Source of the DNA: an uncultured delta proteobacterium
GTDB lineage: Bacteria > Desulfobacterota > Desulfomonilia > UBA1062
DNA: 64,000 nucleotides
NCBI GenBank assembly: GCA_963798485.1
Contig: CAWCTR010000017.1
Span: 244,512 to 308,511 of the forward strand
Direction of reading: 5' to 3'
Shown piece by piece: positions 8,373-44,303 of this stretch; the stretch's first letter is position 1; each line of letters starts with the position of its first letter. The notes below the pieces were generated by a model, which ran no database searches, was not told where the DNA came from, and saw only the letters and a program-made list of their open reading frames with translations. The translations under genes were made by a program, and so were the position numbers.

Positions 8373-11162
8373 TTACTTGGCCTTTTCCTGGATGATCGTA
8401 TTGCCTTGGTCGATGATTTGTATGCTCCGCTTCTTGGGTAGCGCCTTAATGGTGATTTCCTGTGTCTGGCCGGGGCCGATTTCAAGACTGATAGAGTTTT
8501 TATCATAGCCGTAATACTTCGGAAGCGTGTCTGTGGCAACTTGCAGAGTCTTTCTGCCCGGCCTCACCTCATTAAACCGGAATCTCCCCTGGCTATCGGT
8601 GAGCACATGCATTGTTTCATCCGTAGTTGCAAGCACAACGAGCACATTTGCAAGGCCCGAAATCTCTTTGAGCTCAAGGGGTTGTCCTTTCGAAGAACCG
8701 ATCCCAGCAGCCTGGTCAACTTCATAGAGCGATGTGCTTTTATCATTGCCTATCCCATAGAGTACCACTCTGCCTGTGAGGACGGCCTTTTTCGTAACGC
8801 CGATCTCAATTACTTTCTCTTGGCCGCCTTCCAGCTTGATGGGCAATGGGTTCCGGCATGTAGGTATCCGGTCAATGCCAAGCCTTGATGCATCAATTCC
8901 CAGATAAGGGATACCGGGTTTGACAGAGGAGAATATGAACCTTCCGTCTTTTCCTGTTGCAGTGGTCATGTCATCGAGTCTTAACAGGACATTCGCCAGG
9001 GCCTCGCCGGTATTGGCATCTCGAATAACCCCGGAGACAGTGCTGCTACCCTTTTTCCTGCCCACAGGAAGATTGAATGGATATGAGTACTCCAGCTGGA
9101 TTGATGTCTCATCATTATTATTCTCATGATGGGCATAGAAGGTGTGGGCGGCCTGAAAAGAGACAGTGTCCTTGCTGAAAAATGTGTAGTTGAGAGAAGA
9201 GGTGAGCATATACTTATTCCCGATAGTGGAATCCGAGTAGGTATCCATCTGAGCGCTGCATTGGAATTGAGTGTTGTTTGCGATGATCAGTGAGCTGTTG
9301 ATGCCGGCTGTAAGGTTCCGGTCCTTTCCCACTTCTGCATTCTGGCCCTGGGCATAGCGGAGATAACCGCCATAGGTCTGCCCATTTGTCAGGTGGAGGT
9401 ACATGGATGATGACACCTGATAGATGAGCCCAGAGCTCGACGTCAGTTGATCATCTTTTTCGCCGGCTTCTCCAAAGAGGTTCAGCGACAGGTTTGAATA
9501 GTTCTGAAGTACCCCGACCCTGAGTGTGTTTGTCGAATAGTCAAATACAGGGACATCCATGCGGTCTTTTGTCGTACGATACTGCCAGGTGGCGGTATAG
9601 GTCGTGTCTCTCCCATACCGGTAATCCAGACCTGTCTGATAGAGGGTATCAAAGGCTGCGCTTCGTTTAAGCTCATCCATATCCAGATTATCTTTTTCCT
9701 GGTTAAAGACTGCATTCACATTAACAGAATCGGTCAAAGGGCTTGAGAGGTCCAGGGAGAACAACTCCTTGTCCTGGTAATATCCGGGAAAGTTCGGCGC
9801 TGCATAGAGATATTTGATTCGGGAGGCAATGGAGTTGCTGAGGTAGGAGAGCTTTACAAGGTATGCATTATCTTCTTCTTCAAGGTGTTTACCCATACCC
9901 CCTTCGAGTTGGATGTTTAAAAATTGAATGGGTCTCAGTTCCGCTGTTGTGGTCAAGAGCTTATCGCTGCCCTCAATATTCTCTTGGTCTTTGTTGAGGC
10001 AGTTCACGGCAAAGCGTGCACCCTCTGCCGGGGCGTACCCAAAGGTTGCTGCCGTTTCCGTAGTTTTGGGGGCGATCCATTGGGATTTTACATAATAGCT
10101 CCGCAGGTTCAGCCCTTTATATGCAATAAGCCCGTCTGCGCCTCGTGCGGTAAGATATTGCTCGGTGAGCTCTGATAGAGAGAACTGGCCATCCCCTGCA
10201 GTGAGATCATAGCCATTGCCCCATGTCCGGATAGTGTAATTGTCCCTGGTCCCGGACAATGATTTATCCAGGGTATCAGGCCCCCTGAAGAGAAATGAGA
10301 TATACTTGGTGCCTGCTTCATCAAGTGCGCCTTCACCTTGCATCTCAGCCTGGAATGGTGTGGTCGTCTTATCCTTTGTCTCAAAGTCCTGCCTGAGGCG
10401 TATCGTTGTCGGTACGGTGTTGTATATATCCTTCCGGCCTTGAAGCGGGATGATCTCTACAAAGGATTGGGTCTGGGCGTGAATCTCCTCTTTTCCGGTA
10501 ACTGTGGCTGTGCATTCTACCCTATGCGTCAATCCGGCATCAGTCATTTGATGGGTTTGAACGGTCACATGGACTGCTTGAGAACCCCCTGGACCAAGAG
10601 TGAATTCATGGGCATCCGTACTAAAGGGAAAATCATTACTGCTCGAGATAGAGAGCGTTATGTCCTGTTCTTGGTTGCTCTCGTTGGTGATAAGGAATGA
10701 AGCAACATACCCTTGACCTGATATCACTGACCGGGGTGAATCGATGAGGCGGACCTTCAACCCGGTGACCGACAGGACCTTTACAAGTATGGATTGATTT
10801 GTGCTTATGGAGGGGTCATGTGTAGATGCAAAGTAACACTCTATGTCATAAGCTTTGGCAAGGGCATCATCAGGGATATAAAAGCTCACCAGGATTACTG
10901 AAGTCTGGTTGCGCTCCAGCCAAAAGGAATTCAAAGAGGTGATAAGTTTCCAACCCGGAGGGAGCTTGATGTCAGACATGCATTCTATACGCTGATCTGT
11001 TGAATTGGTTATTTCAAAGGCTGCGGTAATTACGTTTTTCGGCTTGGACTCGAATAGCTGATTTCCTGTAGCCCTGCTTTCAAGGCCCCGTGCATGACCA
11101 GGAGGAGCCCCGAATAAAAACACTATGAGCATACAGATCAGATATGTCGGTACCTTTTTCAA
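8373..11162 (-). CDS. Large exported protein, putative divergent fimbrial usher / outer-membrane assembly platform
   Basis: Signal peptide, two N-terminal Ig-like (NEW3-like) repeats, long central amphipathic beta-strand region, two C-terminal carboxypeptidase-regulatory-like domains (T..DGRF.F..V.PG); coupled to the chaperone-like gene. Confidence 0.55.
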   Translation of the reverse strand: MKKVPTYLICMLIVFLFGAPPGHARGLESRATGNQLFESKPKNVITAAFEITNSTDQRIECMSDIKLPPGWKLITSLNSFWLERNQTSVILVSFYIPDDALAKAYDIECYFASTHDPSISTNQSILVKVLSVTGLKVRLIDSPRSVISGQGYVASFLITNESNQEQDITLSISSSNDFPFSTDAHEFTLGPGGSQAVHVTVQTHQMTDAGLTHRVECTATVTGKEEIHAQTQSFVEIIPLQGRKDIYNTVPTTIRLRQDFETKDKTTTPFQAEMQGEGALDEAGTKYISFLFRGPDTLDKSLSGTRDNYTIRTWGNGYDLTAGDGQFSLSELTEQYLTARGADGLIAYKGLNLRSYYVKSQWIAPKTTETAATFGYAPAEGARFAVNCLNKDQENIEGSDKLLTTTAELRPIQFLNIQLEGGMGKHLEEEDNAYLVKLSYLSNSIASRIKYLYAAPNFPGYYQDKELFSLDLSSPLTDSVNVNAVFNQEKDNLDMDELKRSAAFDTLYQTGLDYRYGRDTTYTATWQYRTTKDRMDVPVFDYSTNTLRVGVLQNYSNLSLNLFGEAGEKDDQLTSSSGLIYQVSSSMYLHLTNGQTYGGYLRYAQGQNAEVGKDRNLTAGINSSLIIANNTQFQCSAQMDTYSDSTIGNKYMLTSSLNYTFFSKDTVSFQAAHTFYAHHENNNDETSIQLEYSYPFNLPVGRKKGSSTVSGVIRDANTGEALANVLLRLDDMTTATGKDGRFIFSSVKPGIPYLGIDASRLGIDRIPTCRNPLPIKLEGGQEKVIEIGVTKKAVLTGRVVLYGIGNDKSTSLYEVDQAAGIGSSKGQPLELKEISGLANVLVVLATTDETMHVLTDSQGRFRFNEVRPGRKTLQVATDTLPKYYGYDKNSISLEIGPGQTQEITIKALPKKRSIQIIDQGNTIIQEKAK

Positions 11163-11980
11163 TTATCAAATTTCAGTGTATACTGGATCCCGATGAGGTC
11201 GTTCTCTCCGCAATCTGCAACCACAAGTGCCTTGTAGGTACCGGCAGGAACCTTTGAGATATCGATCCTGAACCGCTTGGATGTGTCCGGATAGACGCGG
11301 TATTGCTCGCCTTGAAACCGGCCCATGGAAGTTCCATCCTGGGCGTAGAGCTCTGTCCAGAGCTGAGGATGAAGGAGCCTTTCTCCATCATTTTCCACGT
11401 CAATCTGCAGGATCCTTGCATCCGTTTCTTTCAGGATTTTTGTCTGGAGGAACTTGATCTTTCTGGTCCCGGTATCGCCGATATGGGTCACAACCTGAAC
11501 GGCATAGCGCATGATCTGGGTGATGCCCAAAGAGAGCTTCTTCTCTTTTTGTGCGCCTGCAGATTCCGGGGAACCCGTAGGGAGGCCTTCAATCATGAGC
11601 ATGCTCCAGAAAGTGCCCACAAGGGCCCGATCGCCCGGAACTGTCACGGTGTAATTTATGGTCGCCTTTTCATTAGGCGGCACAGTGAGCCTGCTGGGGC
11701 TGAACGAGATCCAGCGGGCGTTCGACCGTGCATCTTTGCCCGGCTCCCCATAGGTAGTCTCCCCTTCATAGTTGAACCGGTAATCCGATTGATAAATTTT
11801 CAATTCCTGGGGCGTATCTTCCTGGTTTTTTATTACAATCTCACCCTGGTACGTTTCGCCTGCCTTGGAAACCTTCTCGTTGGTAAGCCCCCCTTCGATG
11901 GAGATCCCGGCTATCGCAACAGTGGGGATAACCATGATCGCACATGCGATCAAATAAATGAAAAAGAGTGATCTCCTCAT
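11159..11980 (-). CDS. Putative periplasmic pilus chaperone-like protein (two Ig domains)
   Basis: Signal peptide; RSNARWISFSPSRLTVPP, GTFWSMLMIE, DVENDG, RVYP, GTYKALVV resemble PapD/DUF916-type two-domain proteins. Confidence 0.6.
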   Translation of the reverse strand: MRRSLFFIYLIACAIMVIPTVAIAGISIEGGLTNEKVSKAGETYQGEIVIKNQEDTPQELKIYQSDYRFNYEGETTYGEPGKDARSNARWISFSPSRLTVPPNEKATINYTVTVPGDRALVGTFWSMLMIEGLPTGSPESAGAQKEKKLSLGITQIMRYAVQVVTHIGDTGTRKIKFLQTKILKETDARILQIDVENDGERLLHPQLWTELYAQDGTSMGRFQGEQYRVYPDTSKRFRIDISKVPAGTYKALVVADCGENDLIGIQYTLKFDN

Positions 11981-11993
11981 TGCACATACTCCT

Positions 11994-12506
11994 TTATGGC
12001 GTATCAATTATTGTATACTGAATCGTTGCAGAATATTGACTCGGAGCTATTTGCAGGGATGCGCCGGTAAGCTGAAATTGTATCTGTATGCCGTTTCGAT
12101 TGCCTGCACCGGTAAAGAAGATGGTATCATTAGTGGTTACCTGGATATATGCCTGCCCCCCTGATACGGAGCCTTTTCCTGTACCGCTCGATGTCCTTAT
12201 TGCAAAAATCTGCAGGGAGCCGTTCCAGGCGGTGTTTATACGCTTGATGTTTATCTGCCAGTTGTCGTTCTTGTTTTTTGCACCGGAAATGGTGATCAGG
12301 TTTGCATTCTGTGCGCTTGTAAAGGTGCCGGTTATATCCGTTCCCGGGCCCCCGGTTAGGTTATTCTTGTCAACGCTCTGGGTCCAGCTTCCGGTGACAG
12401 TGATGTTGATGACAGCAGCGGCCGGACCAGCTTCAAGAAGGACCATGAAGAGCCCCATGGTAAATATCACGATCCCTTTCGCAATGCCATGGCCTAGGCT
12501 CTTCAT
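11994..12506 (-). CDS. Putative pilus subunit (minor/adaptor), secreted beta-rich protein
   Basis: Signal peptide ending AAA, Thr/Gly/Asn-rich, C-terminal PSQYSATIQYTI strand. Confidence 0.55.
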   Translation of the reverse strand: MKSLGHGIAKGIVIFTMGLFMVLLEAGPAAAVINITVTGSWTQSVDKNNLTGGPGTDITGTFTSAQNANLITISGAKNKNDNWQINIKRINTAWNGSLQIFAIRTSSGTGKGSVSGGQAYIQVTTNDTIFFTGAGNRNGIQIQFQLTGASLQIAPSQYSATIQYTIIDTP

Positions 12507-12514
12507 GCGCCCCT

Positions 12515-13030
12515 TCAATCGGTCAGGGTCAGCGTTACCGTGCACGATTTAGTGAGCACGCCTGCGGCAGTGGTTGCACTGAACCGGTAGGTTATGGTCT
12601 TACTGGCGGCCGCCACATAGCTGATGCCCGTCACCACATCCGCGGCAACGGTTGATAATGTCTTGTAACCCATGCTTGTGCCCGAACCAGGGGCTGTCAG
12701 CTGAATTTCAAGGGTGGTGTTCGCCGGCATCTGCGTATTGATGCTCGCCGTGATCCTTTTATTGGTGCCGTTTGTGGAGATAGAGTATGTCGATGATGCG
12801 TCTATTGCCGGTTTGGGTTGCTGTCCGGCGATTGCAGAGTTGATGGTAAGGGTGGGGGAGCCTGTTACGGCAATCTCATTGATTGCCTGAAAGGTAAACG
12901 TAACCGCAGTGGTGCCGGTCTGTGCCCCGTGAGCCGTACCCTGAAGAAGGGCAACAACAACGCATATGAAAGAGAGTGCACGAAAGTCCTTTTCCCTAAG
13001 CGCACCTGGAGATATACACTTCCATTTCAC
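12515..13030 (-). CDS. Putative pilus subunit
   Basis: Signal peptide (AHG), N-terminal alternating VTFTFQAI strand, KRITA motif shared with the 14885 and 15512 proteins, C-terminal TVTLTLTD. Confidence 0.6.
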   Translation of the reverse strand: MKWKCISPGALREKDFRALSFICVVVALLQGTAHGAQTGTTAVTFTFQAINEIAVTGSPTLTINSAIAGQQPKPAIDASSTYSISTNGTNKRITASINTQMPANTTLEIQLTAPGSGTSMGYKTLSTVAADVVTGISYVAAASKTITYRFSATTAAGVLTKSCTVTLTLTD

Positions 13031-13256
13031 CGGAGATTAGCCCCCCTCATAATTATATTCCCCATGCAGGGCCCAATGAGAAAGGTCATGGATGGTCATA
13101 ATAACAATTCAAAAATAAGTTACATTCACGTACGCACGTACGATTTGTTATGGTATGATATACAATATTTTGAGATAGTCAATTCTGAATTAATATGAGG
13201 ATGGTTTTATGATTCTGTTGAGAATCATGACAAGATTATTTGAGTATTGAATAAGG

Positions 13257-13273
13257 ACTATCATTTTGATAGT
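13257..13273. promoter_or_regulatory. Palindromic operator ACTATCA-TTT-TGATAGT upstream of the sigma54 activator gene
   Basis: Perfect 7-bp arms; a near-identical copy occurs at 14777-14791. Confidence 0.6.
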
Positions 13274-13309
13274 GTATTCTCATCGAGGTGAAGGCCTGGA
13301 GGCGGATAC

Positions 13310-14707
13310 ATGGATGAGACGACAACGACTCAAGGACAGTTCCACCTTTTATGTGTTGATGATGACCCTGCCATTCTCAGATTGCTCAAGAATATATTCC
13401 GGCAGGAGAACTATGGCATTTTTACTGCCAAGGATGCTGCAGAGGCCCTGCGGTTAATAAGAGAGACAAGAATCGATGCCGCGCTTGTCGATTACATGAT
13501 GCCCGATACTGACGGACTGAGTCTGTTAAAGATGATTCATGAAGTATATCCATCCACCATGGTGATTATTATAACAGGCCATGGGGGGATAGATGAGGCG
13601 ATCCAAGCCATTAAGCTTGGTGCGGTTGACTTTCTGGAAAAGCCCTTTTCTGTGGAAGTTATCAGGACACGTGTAGCCCATCTCTATCAGATCTGGAAAC
13701 TGCATGACGAAAACTTCAAGCGTAAAGAGAATGTAACCCATAAGTTCGGTTTTGATCAACTCATAGGTAATTCACCTAAAATGCTCAAACTGAAAGAGAA
13801 GATCGCTGTCGTGGGTCCGACCGATGCCTCTGTCCTTATTGAGGGAGAAACCGGAACAGGCAAAGAACTTGTGGCCCGGGCCATTCACCATCACAGCCAG
13901 CGCGCACTGAACATCTTTATGCCCGTAGATTGCGGGGCCATAGCGGAATCGGTTATTGAGAACGAGCTGTTCGGACATGCAAAAGGCGCCTTTACCGGCG
14001 CCCATATCTCTACTTTGGGGCTCATCCGTTCGGCCGATAACGGGACCCTCTTCCTTGATGAAATAGGTGAGCTCTCTAATGCCATGCAGGTGAAATTATT
14101 AAGGACAATCCAGGAACGTGAGGTAAGACCAGTCGGCAGCAATAAGAGTTTCCCGCTCGATGTAAGGATCATAGCAGCTACAAACAAGAATCTTCTCGAG
14201 GAGGTCGCAAAGGGTAATTTCCGGGAAGATCTTTTCTACAGGCTTAATGTCGTGCGCCTCCTTGTGCCTCCCTTGAAAGAGCGCAAGGAGGATATCGCCC
14301 TGCTGGTGAGATACTTTGTTAAAAATTTCAGCACTGATTTTTCAACCGTAAAGGATATCACCAGAGAAGCTATTGCCTGTCTCGAAAATTATAACTGGCC
14401 GGGTAATGTCCGGGAACTGGCAAATGCAATCCGGCTGGCAACGGCGCTGGGTACACAAGAGCGCATACTCCCAAGTGATCTTCCCCCTCATATCGGTTCT
14501 GCGCAGGAACCAGCGCAAAGGTTTCTCCCGCAATCAGATGGTACCCTGGCTTCGTATGAAAAGGCAGCCATTCTCAATGCCCTTGAACTCAGTGGCGGAA
14601 ATCGGAAAAAGGCATCCAAGATCCTCAAGATCGGAGAAGCGACCCTGTACCGCAAGATTGCCGGATATCATATTAAATACGAGGCCCCTGGTAAACCAGA
14701 ACAATAG
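13310..14707 (+). CDS. Sigma54-dependent response regulator (NtrC/AtoC family)
   Basis: REC domain, GETGTGKE, ELFGHAKGAFTGA, FLDEIGE, WPGNVREL, Fis-type HTH. Confidence 0.95.
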   Translation: MDETTTTQGQFHLLCVDDDPAILRLLKNIFRQENYGIFTAKDAAEALRLIRETRIDAALVDYMMPDTDGLSLLKMIHEVYPSTMVIIITGHGGIDEAIQAIKLGAVDFLEKPFSVEVIRTRVAHLYQIWKLHDENFKRKENVTHKFGFDQLIGNSPKMLKLKEKIAVVGPTDASVLIEGETGTGKELVARAIHHHSQRALNIFMPVDCGAIAESVIENELFGHAKGAFTGAHISTLGLIRSADNGTLFLDEIGELSNAMQVKLLRTIQEREVRPVGSNKSFPLDVRIIAATNKNLLEEVAKGNFREDLFYRLNVVRLLVPPLKERKEDIALLVRYFVKNFSTDFSTVKDITREAIACLENYNWPGNVRELANAIRLATALGTQERILPSDLPPHIGSAQEPAQRFLPQSDGTLASYEKAAILNALELSGGNRKKASKILKIGEATLYRKIAGYHIKYEAPGKPEQ

Positions 14708-14747
14708 AGGGCATATATTGGGACCGGGTGTAATAGTAATGAGAATC

Positions 14748-14791
14748 GATCAAAATGAGAAAACCGGAGGTTGGCACTATCATTATGATAG
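14748..14791. promoter_or_regulatory. Paired enhancer (UAS) sites
   Basis: GATCA-AAA-TGAGA (14748-14760) and CTATCA-TTA-TGATAG (14777-14791); centres 30 bp apart, about 100-130 bp upstream of a sigma54 start. Confidence 0.55.
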
Positions 14792-14855
14792 AATGAAATT
14801 AGAAAATTCTTTCCACAATAAATTAATAATTAAGTAAAAACAGTTGGTTATTCTT

Positions 14856-14872
14856 TTGGCATGGAAGCTGCT
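14856..14872 (+). promoter_or_regulatory. Sigma54 (-24/-12) promoter
   Basis: TTGGCATGGAAGCTGCT: GG-N10-GC spacing is exact. Confidence 0.7.
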
Positions 14873-14884
14873 GTGAAACAACAT

Positions 14885-15409
14885 ATGGGTCAACTCCGAA
14901 ACAAGATCCTGGCTGTTAACTTGATATGCCTTTTGGCATTCCTGACTCTATACCCTTCTTTCCTTATAGCAGCACAATCTGTGTCCCGAGTGAAAGTAAC
15001 CGTTGCTCCAATCGATAATCTACAAGTAAGTGATGCAACACGTGGGATTCTGCTCCGCGCCGACAGCACACCCGGTTCCAATGCGCTCATAGGGGATCCT
15101 GATCCGACAGCCCGCTTAAGCTATTCTCACAATTCGGCTGCCAACAAGAAGATAACAGCGCAGGTAAGCCCGGCAGGCATCCCTGCAGGGCTTCAAGACA
15201 TTACCCTTACGGTGGTGGTCATGGGGGGTGCGGAGCAGAGTATTGTACAAGGCGGGGTGACCCAGGGCGCAAAGAATGTGCTGACTGGTATCACCTCAGG
15301 TTATAGGGAAAATGTGCCGGTAACATACAGCGCAGCGGCTACCATCTCGGGCTCGCGCCCGGGCGATTATGCGTTTAGGGTTACGTTCACCAGTCTTGAC
15401 GATGATTAA
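14885..15409 (+). CDS. Putative pilus subunit (paralog of 15512..16012)
   Basis: Signal peptide; TARLSYSHNS..KKITA; C-terminal PGDYAFRVTFTS; ATG 14861 lies inside the promoter so 14885 is preferred. Confidence 0.6.
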   Translation: MGQLRNKILAVNLICLLAFLTLYPSFLIAAQSVSRVKVTVAPIDNLQVSDATRGILLRADSTPGSNALIGDPDPTARLSYSHNSAANKKITAQVSPAGIPAGLQDITLTVVVMGGAEQSIVQGGVTQGAKNVLTGITSGYRENVPVTYSAAATISGSRPGDYAFRVTFTSLDDD

Positions 15410-15421
15410 CGGAGAAAGAAT

Positions 15422-15449
15422 AGAGAAAGCCCCCGGCAATGCCGGGGGC
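15422..15449 (-). terminator. Intrinsic terminator between convergent subunit genes
   Basis: GCCCCCGGCA-A-TGCCGGGGGC inverted repeat followed on the minus strand by TTTCTCT. Confidence 0.7.
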
Positions 15450-15511
15450 CTGTATGCAGCAATAGGGAATGTGCTTTGTCCCGAACCGCAATCGGGACGG
15501 GCCTCTTGTTG

Positions 15512-16012
15512 TTATCCTGCTGTACTGGTGAACGTAACCGTGAATGTGTAGGTATTCGCAACAGTAGCTGTAGTACAGGATGCTCCGTAGGTTACCACTG
15601 CATTGGTTATGGCCCCTGCAGCAATACCGGTTCTTACATCCTTGGATCCTTGTGTTATTCCTCCGGCGACAAGTGTAACTGGTCCGGGACCGCCTGCAAC
15701 TGTTGTAGTCAGGGTAATATTCTGCGTACCAACAGGCATACCCCCTGTTAAGACCTCAGCTGTGATCTTTCTTGTGGAGGCCGAGTTATGTGTGTAATTT
15801 AAACGAGCAGTGGTACTATCAGTCCCTGTTATTGTGTTGCTACCTAGGGTTGCCGTATCCAGCGTGATAGTTCCACCATCGGTAACATCAAGTGCATCAA
15901 CGGAAGCAACTGTTACCTGAATCTGCGATGTGTCTGATGAGGCAGCCATGACAACACTTCCAACACCCAAAACAATGACCCCGGCCAACAATACTGCTAA
16001 AAATTTTTTCAT
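15512..16012 (-). CDS. Putative major pilus subunit
   Basis: AGGAGG RBS, classic MKKFLAVLLA signal peptide, QIQVTVASVDAL N-terminal strand, Thr/Gly/Ala-rich, C-terminal NTYTFTVTFTS. Confidence 0.65.
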   Translation of the reverse strand: MKKFLAVLLAGVIVLGVGSVVMAASSDTSQIQVTVASVDALDVTDGGTITLDTATLGSNTITGTDSTTARLNYTHNSASTRKITAEVLTGGMPVGTQNITLTTTVAGGPGPVTLVAGGITQGSKDVRTGIAAGAITNAVVTYGASCTTATVANTYTFTVTFTSTAG

Positions 16013-16346
16013 TCTCATTCCTCCTTGAATTGTATTGCACAAATCCCTTATGCTGATTTTCAATGATCGGTTAACAGAAAATAAAACTTTAATACATCCA
16101 TATTTTTTAAAAAGACATAAGACTTATGGATTATAGACAATAAATGAACAGTAGGCAGGGTTTCTTATAGCCGTCGGGTAGTTGATAACGAAAGGCGCTG
16201 GAACAGGCCAAATCAACAGAATCACGACTTGGAAAGGGGCGGGGGCAGCAACAGTGGCAGGAATGCAGGCTACCGGGAACATAGGATTGAACGGCCATAA
16301 GACGGTAGTTCTGCTTTTTGCCTTTACAATGGAGGAGGTGCAATTC

Positions 16347-42932: not shown

Positions 42933-44303
42933 TCAAGGTACGCCATATTTCTTCAGCTTCTTGTGGAGGGTCGCCCTCGTGATACCGAGTTTTCTTGCAG
43001 CCTCGCTTTTGTTCCCCCGGACTGATTCCAGCGTCTTCAGTATACTCAGGCGTTCAATTTCATCCAGGCTGAATTCACCTGTACCCCCATTTGGCAGGGG
43101 CGCATTGTACGATTCTTCCAGACGGAAAACAGGGATATCCTCGTCCCTTAGGTAGTCCGAACTGGACAGGACAACAGCGCTCTCAACCGTATTCATCATC
43201 TCGCGCACGTTACCGGGCCATGGATATTTGATGAGCCGATCCATGGCCTGGGGTGAGAATCCTTTCAAGGGTTTGTTGTTCCTGATGGCAAACATTTTGA
43301 GAAAGTGTTCAGCCAGAACAGGTAAATCCTCGTTGCGATCTCGTAGCGGCGGCACGGAAAGGTTGATTACATTGAGCCGATAGTAAAGGTCTTCTCTGAA
43401 TCTCGCACTCTTGACAAGGGTAGGGAGATCTTTATTCGTCGCTGCAATGATCCTGGCATCCACCGGGATCACCTCTTCGCCGCCGACACGGGTGATCTCT
43501 TTTTCCTGGAGCACACGCAGGAGCTTGACCTGCATGGACAGGGGCATCTCGCTGACCTCATCGAGGAAGAGACTGCCTCCATGGGCCTGTTTGAAGCGGC
43601 CCTCCCTGCGGCGCAATGCCCCGGTGAATGAGCCCTTTTCATGCCCGAACAGTTCGGATTCGAGTAATCCTTCGGATATGGCGGCACAGTTCATCTTAAT
43701 GAAGGGGTGGTCCTTCCGGTGCGAATTGAAGTGGATGGCACCGGCGATCATTTCCTTGCCGGTCCCGGATTCACCGGTGATAAGAACTGTTGCGTCCGAT
43801 GAAGAGGCCCTGGCCGTAGTTTCAAGAAGACGGATCATGGCAGGGCTCCTGCCTATGATATTCCCGGTGTCGAAGCGCTCTCCCACGAGTTCTCTTAAGA
43901 GACGGTTCTCCTCTTTGAGCATGTTGTGTTCCATTGCCTGTTCCATCTTTAAACGCAGCTCATCAAAGTCGAGCGGTTTTGTCAGATATTCATAGGCCCC
44001 CTTCTTCATGGCATCGATTGCCGTGTCGATGGAGGAATAAGCGGTCATGATGAGGACAGGGATGGAAGGGTTGATCTCCTTGATGGCCGCAAGGGCAGTA
44101 AGCCCTGATACTTTGACCATGCGGATGTCCAGGAGGATCAGATCAAAGGGCCGTTCCTGGACCATATCGATTGCCGCCTGGCCGTCTTCAGCCTCGCTTA
44201 CCTCATATTCCCAGCCTGAGAGCAAGGTTTTGAGCATGGTTCGATGACTGAAGTCATCATCCACTACCAAGATGTTTCTCCTTGTGCCGACTGACATGAT
44301 CAT
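42933..44303 (-). CDS. zraR: ZraR/HydG-like sigma54-dependent response regulator
   Basis: ILVVDDDFSHRTMLK, PVLIMTAYSSIDTA, LTKPLDFDEL, ESELFGHEKGSFTGA, Fis-type HTH. Confidence 0.8.
   Translation of the reverse strand: MIMSVGTRRNILVVDDDFSHRTMLKTLLSGWEYEVSEAEDGQAAIDMVQERPFDLILLDIRMVKVSGLTALAAIKEINPSIPVLIMTAYSSIDTAIDAMKKGAYEYLTKPLDFDELRLKMEQAMEHNMLKEENRLLRELVGERFDTGNIIGRSPAMIRLLETTARASSSDATVLITGESGTGKEMIAGAIHFNSHRKDHPFIKMNCAAISEGLLESELFGHEKGSFTGALRRREGRFKQAHGGSLFLDEVSEMPLSMQVKLLRVLQEKEITRVGGEEVIPVDARIIAATNKDLPTLVKSARFREDLYYRLNVINLSVPPLRDRNEDLPVLAEHFLKMFAIRNNKPLKGFSPQAMDRLIKYPWPGNVREMMNTVESAVVLSSSDYLRDEDIPVFRLEESYNAPLPNGGTGEFSLDEIERLSILKTLESVRGNKSEAARKLGITRATLHKKLKKYGVP

Follow-up and report, generated by a model that had tools for sequence, protein, structure and literature searches.

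Gene content and organization of the locus

We describe here a cluster of genes for secreted proteins at positions 8373 to 16063 of a 64,000-nucleotide stretch of DNA (the window) from an uncultured delta proteobacterium of the Desulfobacterota (lineage UBA1062; GenBank assembly GCA_963798485.1, contig CAWCTR010000017.1, positions 244,512 to 308,511, forward strand). A preliminary description of the same DNA, made from its letters and translations, had proposed that the cluster encodes a remote clade of chaperone-usher pili, and we report structural models, profile searches and synteny that bear on this proposal. All six open reading frames (ORFs) on which it was based were found at the coordinates given for them, and the strands quoted from their translations (QIQVTVASVD, VKVTVAPID, VTFTFQAIN and the ending TVTLTLTD) are present. 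Four minus-strand genes, for proteins of 929, 282, 183 and 171 amino acids (aa), are tightly packed at 8373-13030, where they overlap or abut as the genes of an operon would, in keeping with the tight coupling claimed earlier. A gene for a sigma-54 response regulator (13310-14707) runs divergently from this operon, and beyond it the genes at 14861 (plus strand) and 15512 (minus strand) converge. Sec-type leaders are carried by all six proteins of the cluster other than the regulator. The small proteins are named below by the first coordinate of their gene; for the 15512 gene, databases start the protein at an inner methionine, which gives a form of 166 aa (P0019). The features of the locus are as follows, with the evidence for each in brackets.

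8373..11162, minus strand: 929-aa outer-membrane protein, proposed fibre translocon and usher analogue (AlphaFold2 model, homologues, synteny)
10449..11084, minus strand: two N-terminal immunoglobulin (Ig)-like domains, residues 27-238 of the 929-aa protein, putatively periplasmic (secondary structure of the model assigned by DSSP, Pfam)
9057..10424, minus strand: predicted 26-stranded beta-barrel without plug domain, residues 247-702 of the 929-aa protein (DSSP, match to MtrB)
8436..9044, minus strand: two C-terminal CarboxypepD_reg/SdrD_B-like beta-sandwich domains, residues 707-909 of the 929-aa protein, putatively periplasmic (Pfam)
11159..12007, minus strand: 282-aa secreted two-domain protein, proposed periplasmic chaperone (signal peptide, fn3_5, predicted complex)
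11495..11542, minus strand: predicted donor strand, residues 156-171 of the 282-aa protein (contacts in the predicted complex)
11994..12545, minus strand: 183-aa secreted protein of the 11994 type, candidate tip, adaptor or terminator subunit (synteny, C-terminal strand)
12515..13030, minus strand: 171-aa member of the subunit family encoded in the operon, candidate minor subunit (identity to the 15512 protein, profile)
13310..14707, plus strand: sigma-54-dependent response regulator that may control the cluster (Pfam Response_reg, Sigma54_activat and HTH_8)
14861..15409, plus strand: 182-aa subunit-family protein, probably transcribed alone (identity to the 15512 protein, terminator-like hairpin downstream)
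15512..16063, minus strand: subunit-family protein, candidate major subunit (183 aa; likely start at 16012, giving 166 aa)
15905..15943, minus strand: proposed N-terminal donor strand, residues 24-36 of the 166-aa form (model, aligned ranges, conservation)
15515..15565, minus strand: C-terminal strand, residues 150-166 of the 166-aa form, edge of the acceptor groove to which the chaperone is predicted to bind (conservation, complex)
15427..15501, no strand assigned: two terminator-like hairpins between the convergent subunit genes (consensus scan, stems of 11 and 10 pairs)

Small secreted proteins and the predicted fold of the subunit

The 15512 protein shares 43% identity with the 14861 protein (E 1e-37) and 29% with the 12515 protein (E 6e-8), which the profile of alignment A3 matches at 2e-37. 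Between the 11994 protein and this subunit family no kinship was detected (E 22; hhalign probability 7.6% over 16 C-terminal columns). Judged by these comparisons, the small proteins are three paralogous subunits (15512, 14861 and 12515) and one member of a separate family, so that the four related subunits of the preliminary description shrink to three. The subunit profile recovers 991 representative clusters (50% identity clusters) at E<=1e-3 and 242 at 1e-10. None of the 26 representatives that we scanned has a Pfam family above the cut-off, with a single sub-threshold match to DUF4436, and searches of the small proteins against Pfam and NCBIfam matched no family.

In an alignment of 145 members, positions 31, 33, 35, 38, 41 and 43 of the N-terminal segment are 97-100% hydrophobic, and the best conserved part of the family is a C-terminal strand of the form V-T-F/Y-T. 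As had been claimed, a conserved disulfide is lacking, since 94 of the 145 members have no cysteine in their mature part. Resemblance at the C-terminus extends beyond the family: at five divergent loci in other genomes (see below), small secreted ORFs end in G-x-Y-x-x-x-V-x-Y-T-L-x-x-P, and the 11994-type protein ends much alike. Compared by hhalign, the small-protein family of the divergent loci matches the subunit family at 93.8% probability over 16 columns, all of them in the C-terminal strand, and the 11994-type family at 17.9% over 34 columns. This strand is the only element common to all the small-protein families, and recognition by a common chaperone may be one explanation of its conservation.

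The model of the 166-aa form, built from the 145-sequence alignment, has a predicted local distance difference test score (pLDDT) of 92.1 and consists of a leader helix, a segment without any DSSP strand before residue 39, and a beta-sandwich. Foldseek returned no match to it at E<=1e-3; its best rows, all sub-significant, were Caf1, FimF, TasA, CfaB and archaeal bundling pili. When these candidates were re-ranked, 50 of 50 rows were donor-strand subunits, headed by the pilin domain of CfaE (Z 7.6, root-mean-square deviation (rmsd) 3.4 Å, 117 residues aligned). A scan of 48,161 representative chains of the PDB, independent of Foldseek, had bundling pili (7ueg) and cannulae (9h8b) as its top matches; its ranks 1-20 (Z 6.1-7.5) held nothing but pilin domains and subunits of donor-strand fibres, and unrelated beta-sandwiches started at rank 21. 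Z-scores as modest as these indicate a fold of the pilin type and not kinship. The aligned ranges add to this, for pilins that are truncated N-terminally or complemented by a peptide align from residue 36-38 of the model, and for full-length FimF within its fibre the alignment starts at residue 24, where the mature protein begins, so that residues 24-36 match the N-terminal extension of pilins in position. Model, structural ranking and aligned ranges together support the earlier suggestion of a pilin-type subunit with an N-terminal extension.

One PDB chain of a different kind, 9vzi_B (“Needle protein”, 197 aa), was matched by the subunit profile (A3) at E 4e-4 over profile positions 56-133. 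It is absent from the lists of the fold searches, may be a phage tail-needle beta-sandwich, and was set aside as uninformative.

The 282-aa protein as a putative chaperone

The 282-aa protein has a signal peptide and no C-terminal hydrophobic helix, the C-terminus of its family being a conserved, polar, beta-rich segment without a hydrophobic stretch. Pfam matches it with fn3_5 at 1.2e-6, just over the cut-off, and with WxLIP_PGBD (DUF916) at 9.7e-4, under the cut-off. Among 11 members of the family, fn3_5 was found in all 11, WxLIP_PGBD below threshold in five and WxLIP_HBD in one (E 0.087), and neither PapD_N nor PapD_C (PF00345 and PF02753) matched any of them at E<=1. No family was matched in NCBIfam, and PDB sequence searches with the profiles of the 282-aa, 11994-type and 929-aa proteins gave no relevant match. 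The family comprises 682 clusters (90% identity) at E<=1e-3, of which the 120 listed are 48-89% identical, and has a member in a cultured species, Desulfotalea psychrophila (P0265).

We predicted the complex of residues 34-282 of this protein with residues 24-166 of the 15512 subunit in three runs, alongside three controls. The interface score ipSAE (interaction prediction score from aligned errors) was 0.80, 0.81 and 0.79, and the best control reached 0.00; the calibrated mark for this score is attained by 116 of 157 solved complexes and by 2 of 215 mismatched pairs, figures that hold only roughly here because the runs used custom alignments. At least 92% of contacts are shared among the runs, and the partner has a pLDDT of 90. 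The contacts of lowest error pair helper and subunit residues 161:156, 162:157, 163:158, 164:159, 165:160, 166:161 and 167:162, and the constant offset means that the helper strand 156-171 is aligned in parallel with the subunit's C-terminal strand. On its other side this strand touches subunit residues 48-49, the N-terminal helper strand 34-42 contacts subunit residues 36-43, and subunit residues 24-35 stay outside the interface.

The predicted pairing has the geometry of donor-strand complementation, as in PapD-type chaperones and in ElrE-ElrD, and the modelling favours binding of helper and subunit without demonstrating it. A chaperone resembling PapD or CfaA had been expected at this position; complementation of the chaperone kind is indeed predicted, and the absence of PapD_N from the family, with a weak lean towards Fn3-like and DUF916 domains, speaks against the PapD/CfaA assignment itself. 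The same model bears on another reading of the cluster, in which it is a periplasmic or envelope module, structural or for uptake, and makes no fibre; the small proteins would be binding proteins or components of the envelope, the barrel a channel for large substrates, and the 282-aa protein an accessory. None of the families here has a known function, and Ig-like and CarboxypepD_reg domains are common in diverse envelope proteins, as such a module would have it. We nevertheless consider it very unlikely, as it leaves the pilin-specific structural matches, the predicted donor-strand complex and the conserved, free N-terminal strand unexplained.

The 929-aa outer-membrane barrel protein

The 929-aa protein has 18 homologous clusters, all unnamed. 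Its AlphaFold2 model (18-sequence alignment; pLDDT 84.7; predicted template modelling score (pTM) 0.56) contains 26 long antiparallel DSSP strands (residues 247-702) with alternating short and longer connections, the largest of 16 residues. Pfam places Ig_VWA7 (3.9e-8) and FixG_C (3.1e-6) on residues 141-234 and CarboxypepD_reg (9e-14) near the C-terminus. Homologues of the barrel protein carry additional C-terminal domains, namely OmpA (L026:6249-9227, 6.7e-13), SPOR (P0014) or PKD (such an addition is also seen in L024:1154-4273). As OmpA and SPOR bind peptidoglycan, the C-terminus should be periplasmic, and the even number of barrel strands would place the N-terminal module on the same side; the varying additions suggest variable anchoring to peptidoglycan. 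Taken as modelled, this is an outer-membrane protein with a 26-stranded, plug-less barrel between periplasmic domains. By hhalign (82.6%, E 9.6e-6), domain 1 of the 282-aa protein is related to the second N-terminal Ig domain of the barrel protein, so that the pore may come with a chaperone-like module of its own.

VIA-align comparisons, whether with the candidates from Foldseek or with the full set of 48,161 representatives, gave MtrB as the structure nearest to the barrel (6r2q_B; Z 21.1, rmsd 4.2 Å, 422 residues aligned), followed by chains at Z 16.0-16.8. For ushers the scores are 12.4-16.7, on a par with OccK porins and TonB receptors; LptD has 12.4-15.3. An usher is a 24-stranded barrel into which a plug domain is inserted. 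With 26 strands, no plug and MtrB as its nearest structure, the barrel is in our view not an usher, and the lack of a plug implies a protein partner in the lumen. The Pfam Usher family (PF00577) has no match at E<=1 in the 929-aa protein or anywhere in the genome (97.5% complete), where the sole match to PapD lies elsewhere, at E 0.65. What had been anticipated here was an usher-type barrel with a plug and extra N-terminal Ig domains; the large barrel and its Ig-like and beta-sandwich flanks are present in the model, and the plug and the membership in Usher are not.

It could still be argued that we are dealing with a true member of the classical chaperone-usher superfamily that has drifted past detection by Pfam. 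With the whole 929-aa model, Foldseek lists FimD and PapC first (E 1.5e-14), the alignment with FimD is collinear across the barrel and the C-terminal domains, CfaE, CfaB and Fim subunits are among the best matches of the subunit, and the predicted mode of chaperone binding is identical. Yet the template modelling (TM) scores of the FimD and PapC matches are just 0.27-0.36, ushers rank with porins and TonB receptors and well under MtrB, the strand number differs, the plug is missing and the flanking domains have other folds. Together with the unmatched Usher and PapD families (PapD_N in none of 11 helper proteins), this makes such an ancestry quite unlikely. The earlier assignment to a remote chaperone-usher clade is accordingly not borne out, and we consider the cluster to be probably a functional analogue of a chaperone-usher pilus, not a member of that family.

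The resemblance to MtrB also raises the question of electron transfer. Like MtrB of the MtrCAB complex, the barrel has 26 strands, equal size and no internal plug, and its family occurs chiefly in metagenome-assembled genomes (MAGs) of Desulfobacterota, which would suit a porin for extracellular electron transfer. In contrast with MtrB, it has large periplasmic domains on both ends and no cytochromes nearby: the motif CxxCH is missing from the operon proteins and from all ORFs of at least 100 aa in positions 1-25000 of the window, none of the ORFs in 14 related loci contains more than one such motif, and Pfam MtrB_PioB has no match to the 929-aa protein at E<=1. The want of haem motifs in and around the operon and at the related loci argues against an Mtr-like conduit, and we regard that role as exceedingly improbable.

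Conservation of the gene cluster in other genomes

A search with nine closer members of the barrel family led to 14 related loci in other genomes. The order subunit(s), 11994-type gene, 282-type gene and barrel gene is kept in 12 of them, the 11994-type gene always standing between the subunit and 282-type genes in these 12, and of the two exceptions one (L013) is cut by the end of its contig. At five more divergent loci a barrel-like gene lies directly beside a 282-like gene in every case, and one of these, in a complete genome (G264), has the whole set. Co-occurrence in other genomes, which the preliminary description had named as a test of its proposal, was thus found. The 282-type gene is present in 8 of 301 sampled genomes of the phylum, the present one included, and the five divergent loci come from among these eight. 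The system is therefore sporadic within the phylum, and its core pair of 282-like and barrel genes is very stable. Outside it, the families of the cluster occur in a Thiodiazotropha MAG and, to go by source names or leads from the ESM Atlas, in Bacteroidota, Elusimicrobia and Phycisphaerales.

Such a stable pair would also be expected of a static complex for surface display, in which an MtrB-like barrel is permanently plugged by the 282-aa protein or by one of the small proteins, and the small proteins sit on the surface singly or as short oligomers, without forming a fibre. MtrB houses MtrA in this manner, and LptD houses LptE. MtrB is the nearest structure by 5 Z units, and a barrel without a plug of its own needs its lumen filled. 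Against display of this kind stand the specific, parallel donor-strand mode predicted for the binding of the subunit by the 282-aa protein, the conserved, free, amphipathic N-terminal strand of the subunit, which has no role in monomers, and the paralogy of the subunits, of which there are several with terminators of their own, as one would expect if they formed structural polymers. We think it unlikely.

Of the 12 loci with the operon, 10 have a sigma-54 regulator in the neighbourhood, and the adjacent response regulator probably controls expression of the cluster. Three upstream regions that we read contain no convincing -24/-12 element, and promoter and terminator scans of the region gave numbers of sites not above chance. 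A second sigma-54 response regulator is encoded on the minus strand at 42933-44303 of the window. It scores 3e-99 to the cluster regulator, equal to the regulators beside distant loci, which leaves the orthology of the neighbouring regulators uncertain.

A block of about 80 nucleotides (16020-16100 of the window, minus strand), situated 20-110 nucleotides upstream of the start codon of the 15512 gene, is strongly conserved in five loci (the window and L001-L004) whose proteins are just 46-79% identical. It matches no Rfam family and has no covariation, and it may be a promoter or operator.

Relationship to known fibre systems

To our knowledge, chaperone-assisted donor-strand exchange in diderms has long been tied to a single machinery, a PapD-type chaperone with a 24-stranded, plugged usher. 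The present cluster shares much with it. Its Ig-like subunits are exported through Sec, carry an N-terminal extension and have a conserved C-terminal strand, next to which a periplasmic helper of two domains is predicted to place a parallel strand of its own. The outer-membrane barrel lies between a periplasmic N-terminal module and two C-terminal beta-sandwich domains, and there are candidate major and minor subunits, the minor one encoded in the operon. In all this the cluster resembles the pili of the chaperone-usher kind, whether classical, alternate or archaic (Fim, Pap, CFA/I, Caf1, Csu). It differs in that its proteins have no sequence membership in Usher or PapD, its barrel is predicted (from a model, not a solved structure) to have 26 strands instead of 24 and no plug, its N-terminal module consists of two Ig-like domains and its C-terminal domains are CarboxypepD_reg-like, and its subunits have no conserved disulfide.

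A donor-strand chaperone outside the PapD family has precedent. The accessible part of a preprint of 17 October 2026 (bioRxiv 10.64898/2026.10.17.759780) describes how, in Enterococcus, a DUF916/DUF3324 membrane protein (ElrE) chaperones WxL pilins by donor-strand complementation. The same text reports the WxL system to be confined to Bacillota, on the basis of a screen that required Pfam gathering thresholds, and, as far as that part goes, does not mention a diderm counterpart (bioRxiv 10.64898/2026.10.17.759780). Judged against this account, our cluster resembles the WxL/Elr system of Enterococcus faecalis in having a two-domain chaperone that is not PapD, a parallel complementation (here predicted) and a pilin N-terminal strand that is left free. 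Further, weak likenesses come from our searches: the sub-threshold matches to WxLIP_PGBD, found in three of five divergent 282-like proteins as well as in the five of 11 closer ones, cover nearly the full length of the profile; the neighbour cluster of the 282-aa protein in the ESM Atlas has WxLIP_HBD in 12% of its members; the nearest named Atlas cluster of the 11994-type protein (score 0.93) has Pfam WxL in 19%; and the small proteins end in Y-x-x-x-hydrophobic-x-aromatic-T-hydrophobic, some of them then with P. Among the structural matches listed for the barrel protein, a single one covers its two N-terminal domains together, the solved structure 9i1y_A, “WxLIP from Enterococcus faecium” (Z 12.0, 197 residues aligned), though with an rmsd of 14.8 Å, and it is this N-terminal module that hhalign relates to the 282-aa family.

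These likenesses could point to a more specific origin for the cluster, in which one ancient chaperone-pilin system gave rise to the Gram-positive WxL/Elr pilus and, as its diderm branch, to the system described here. The 282-aa protein would then be a true DUF916/DUF3324 homologue, the small proteins WxL-type pilins whose tryptophans have been replaced, and the part of a plug-less “usher” would have been taken over by a 26-stranded MtrB-like barrel that has an N-terminal, chaperone-like module of its own. We hold this tentatively and as the less probable outcome. All matches to Pfam families of the WxL type, with PF06030 and PF11797 for the chaperone, fall under the gathering score (the best for WxLIP_PGBD in 282-aa proteins is 19.6-20.1 bits, with a cut-off of 27.3), Pfam WxL (PF13731) was found at E<=10 neither in 18 small proteins nor in the whole genome, and 9i1y never appeared in the PDB sequence searches. 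The 282-aa protein is, unlike ElrE, soluble and without a C-terminal transmembrane helix, and the cluster has an outer-membrane barrel and no sortase anchor.

Other fibres solved of late offer a looser comparison, with no relation in sequence seen here. In Pam pili, archaeal bundling pili, cannulae and TasA, too, donor strands join subunits that have an Ig-like or jelly-roll fold. The operon for Pam pili of bacteria of the candidate phyla radiation (CPR) is said, in the accessible text, to encode chaperone-like and usher-like factors (PMC13278184). From what these sources give, Pam pili and the CT pili of cyanobacteria (PMC12397347) were set aside as different families. Our literature search had nothing that combines donor-strand pili with Desulfobacterota among the matches listed.

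A proposed donor-strand pathway and its implications

We postulate that the cluster encodes a non-canonical pathway, made up of a chaperone and an outer-membrane pore, in which donor-strand exchange builds a thin fibre, and we consider this reading, with some reserve, the probable one. In the mechanism that we envisage, strand 156-171 of the chaperone would insert into the subunit, parallel to its C-terminal strand, leaving the N-terminal extension of the subunit free. Complexes of chaperone and subunit could then dock on the chaperone-related N-terminal Ig module of the barrel protein, where the N-terminal strand of an incoming subunit would displace the chaperone strand. By analogy with the way in which MtrB sheathes MtrA, the growing chain of folded subunits would thread out through the barrel, and the 11994-type protein might serve as tip, adaptor or terminator subunit. 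The function of the fibre is likely adhesion or contact with other cells or a matrix. Such a fibre would most likely be made in the manner of chaperone-usher pili, with a helper and a pore that lie outside every recognised pilus family.

Several points weigh against the pathway. The evidence on the function of the cluster is entirely computational. The Z-scores of the subunit are all below 8, where a likeness may mean no more than a shared arrangement, and the Foldseek search had no match within its threshold. The role of the barrel as a translocon rests on synteny and architecture. The score of the predicted complex may come from the memory that the model has of solved chaperone-pilin complexes, and its calibration is approximate for the reason given above. 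At one related locus (L012:10122-11716) the barrel gene is broken into three ORF fragments and has no partner genes, even though 10 kb upstream are covered; the copy may be in decay, or the assembly may be at fault. Finally, a search for sigma-54 promoters yielded 61 matches, with 55 expected.

If the proposal is true, diderms have a further donor-strand pathway, with a chaperone that is not PapD and a larger, plug-less barrel. Should the tentative WxL branch prove true, this would be a third, independent outer-membrane route for the secretion of donor-strand fibres, and the reported restriction of WxL to Bacillota would be overturned. Given the size of the unnamed families involved (991 subunit and 682 chaperone clusters), many hypothetical proteins would gain a function. 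Experiments are feasible, as the chaperone family is present in the cultured Desulfotalea psychrophila, and the cluster could serve to test whether barrels of the MtrB type are general sheaths for protein rods. It would also bear on the evolution of donor-strand assembly across the divide between monoderms and diderms.

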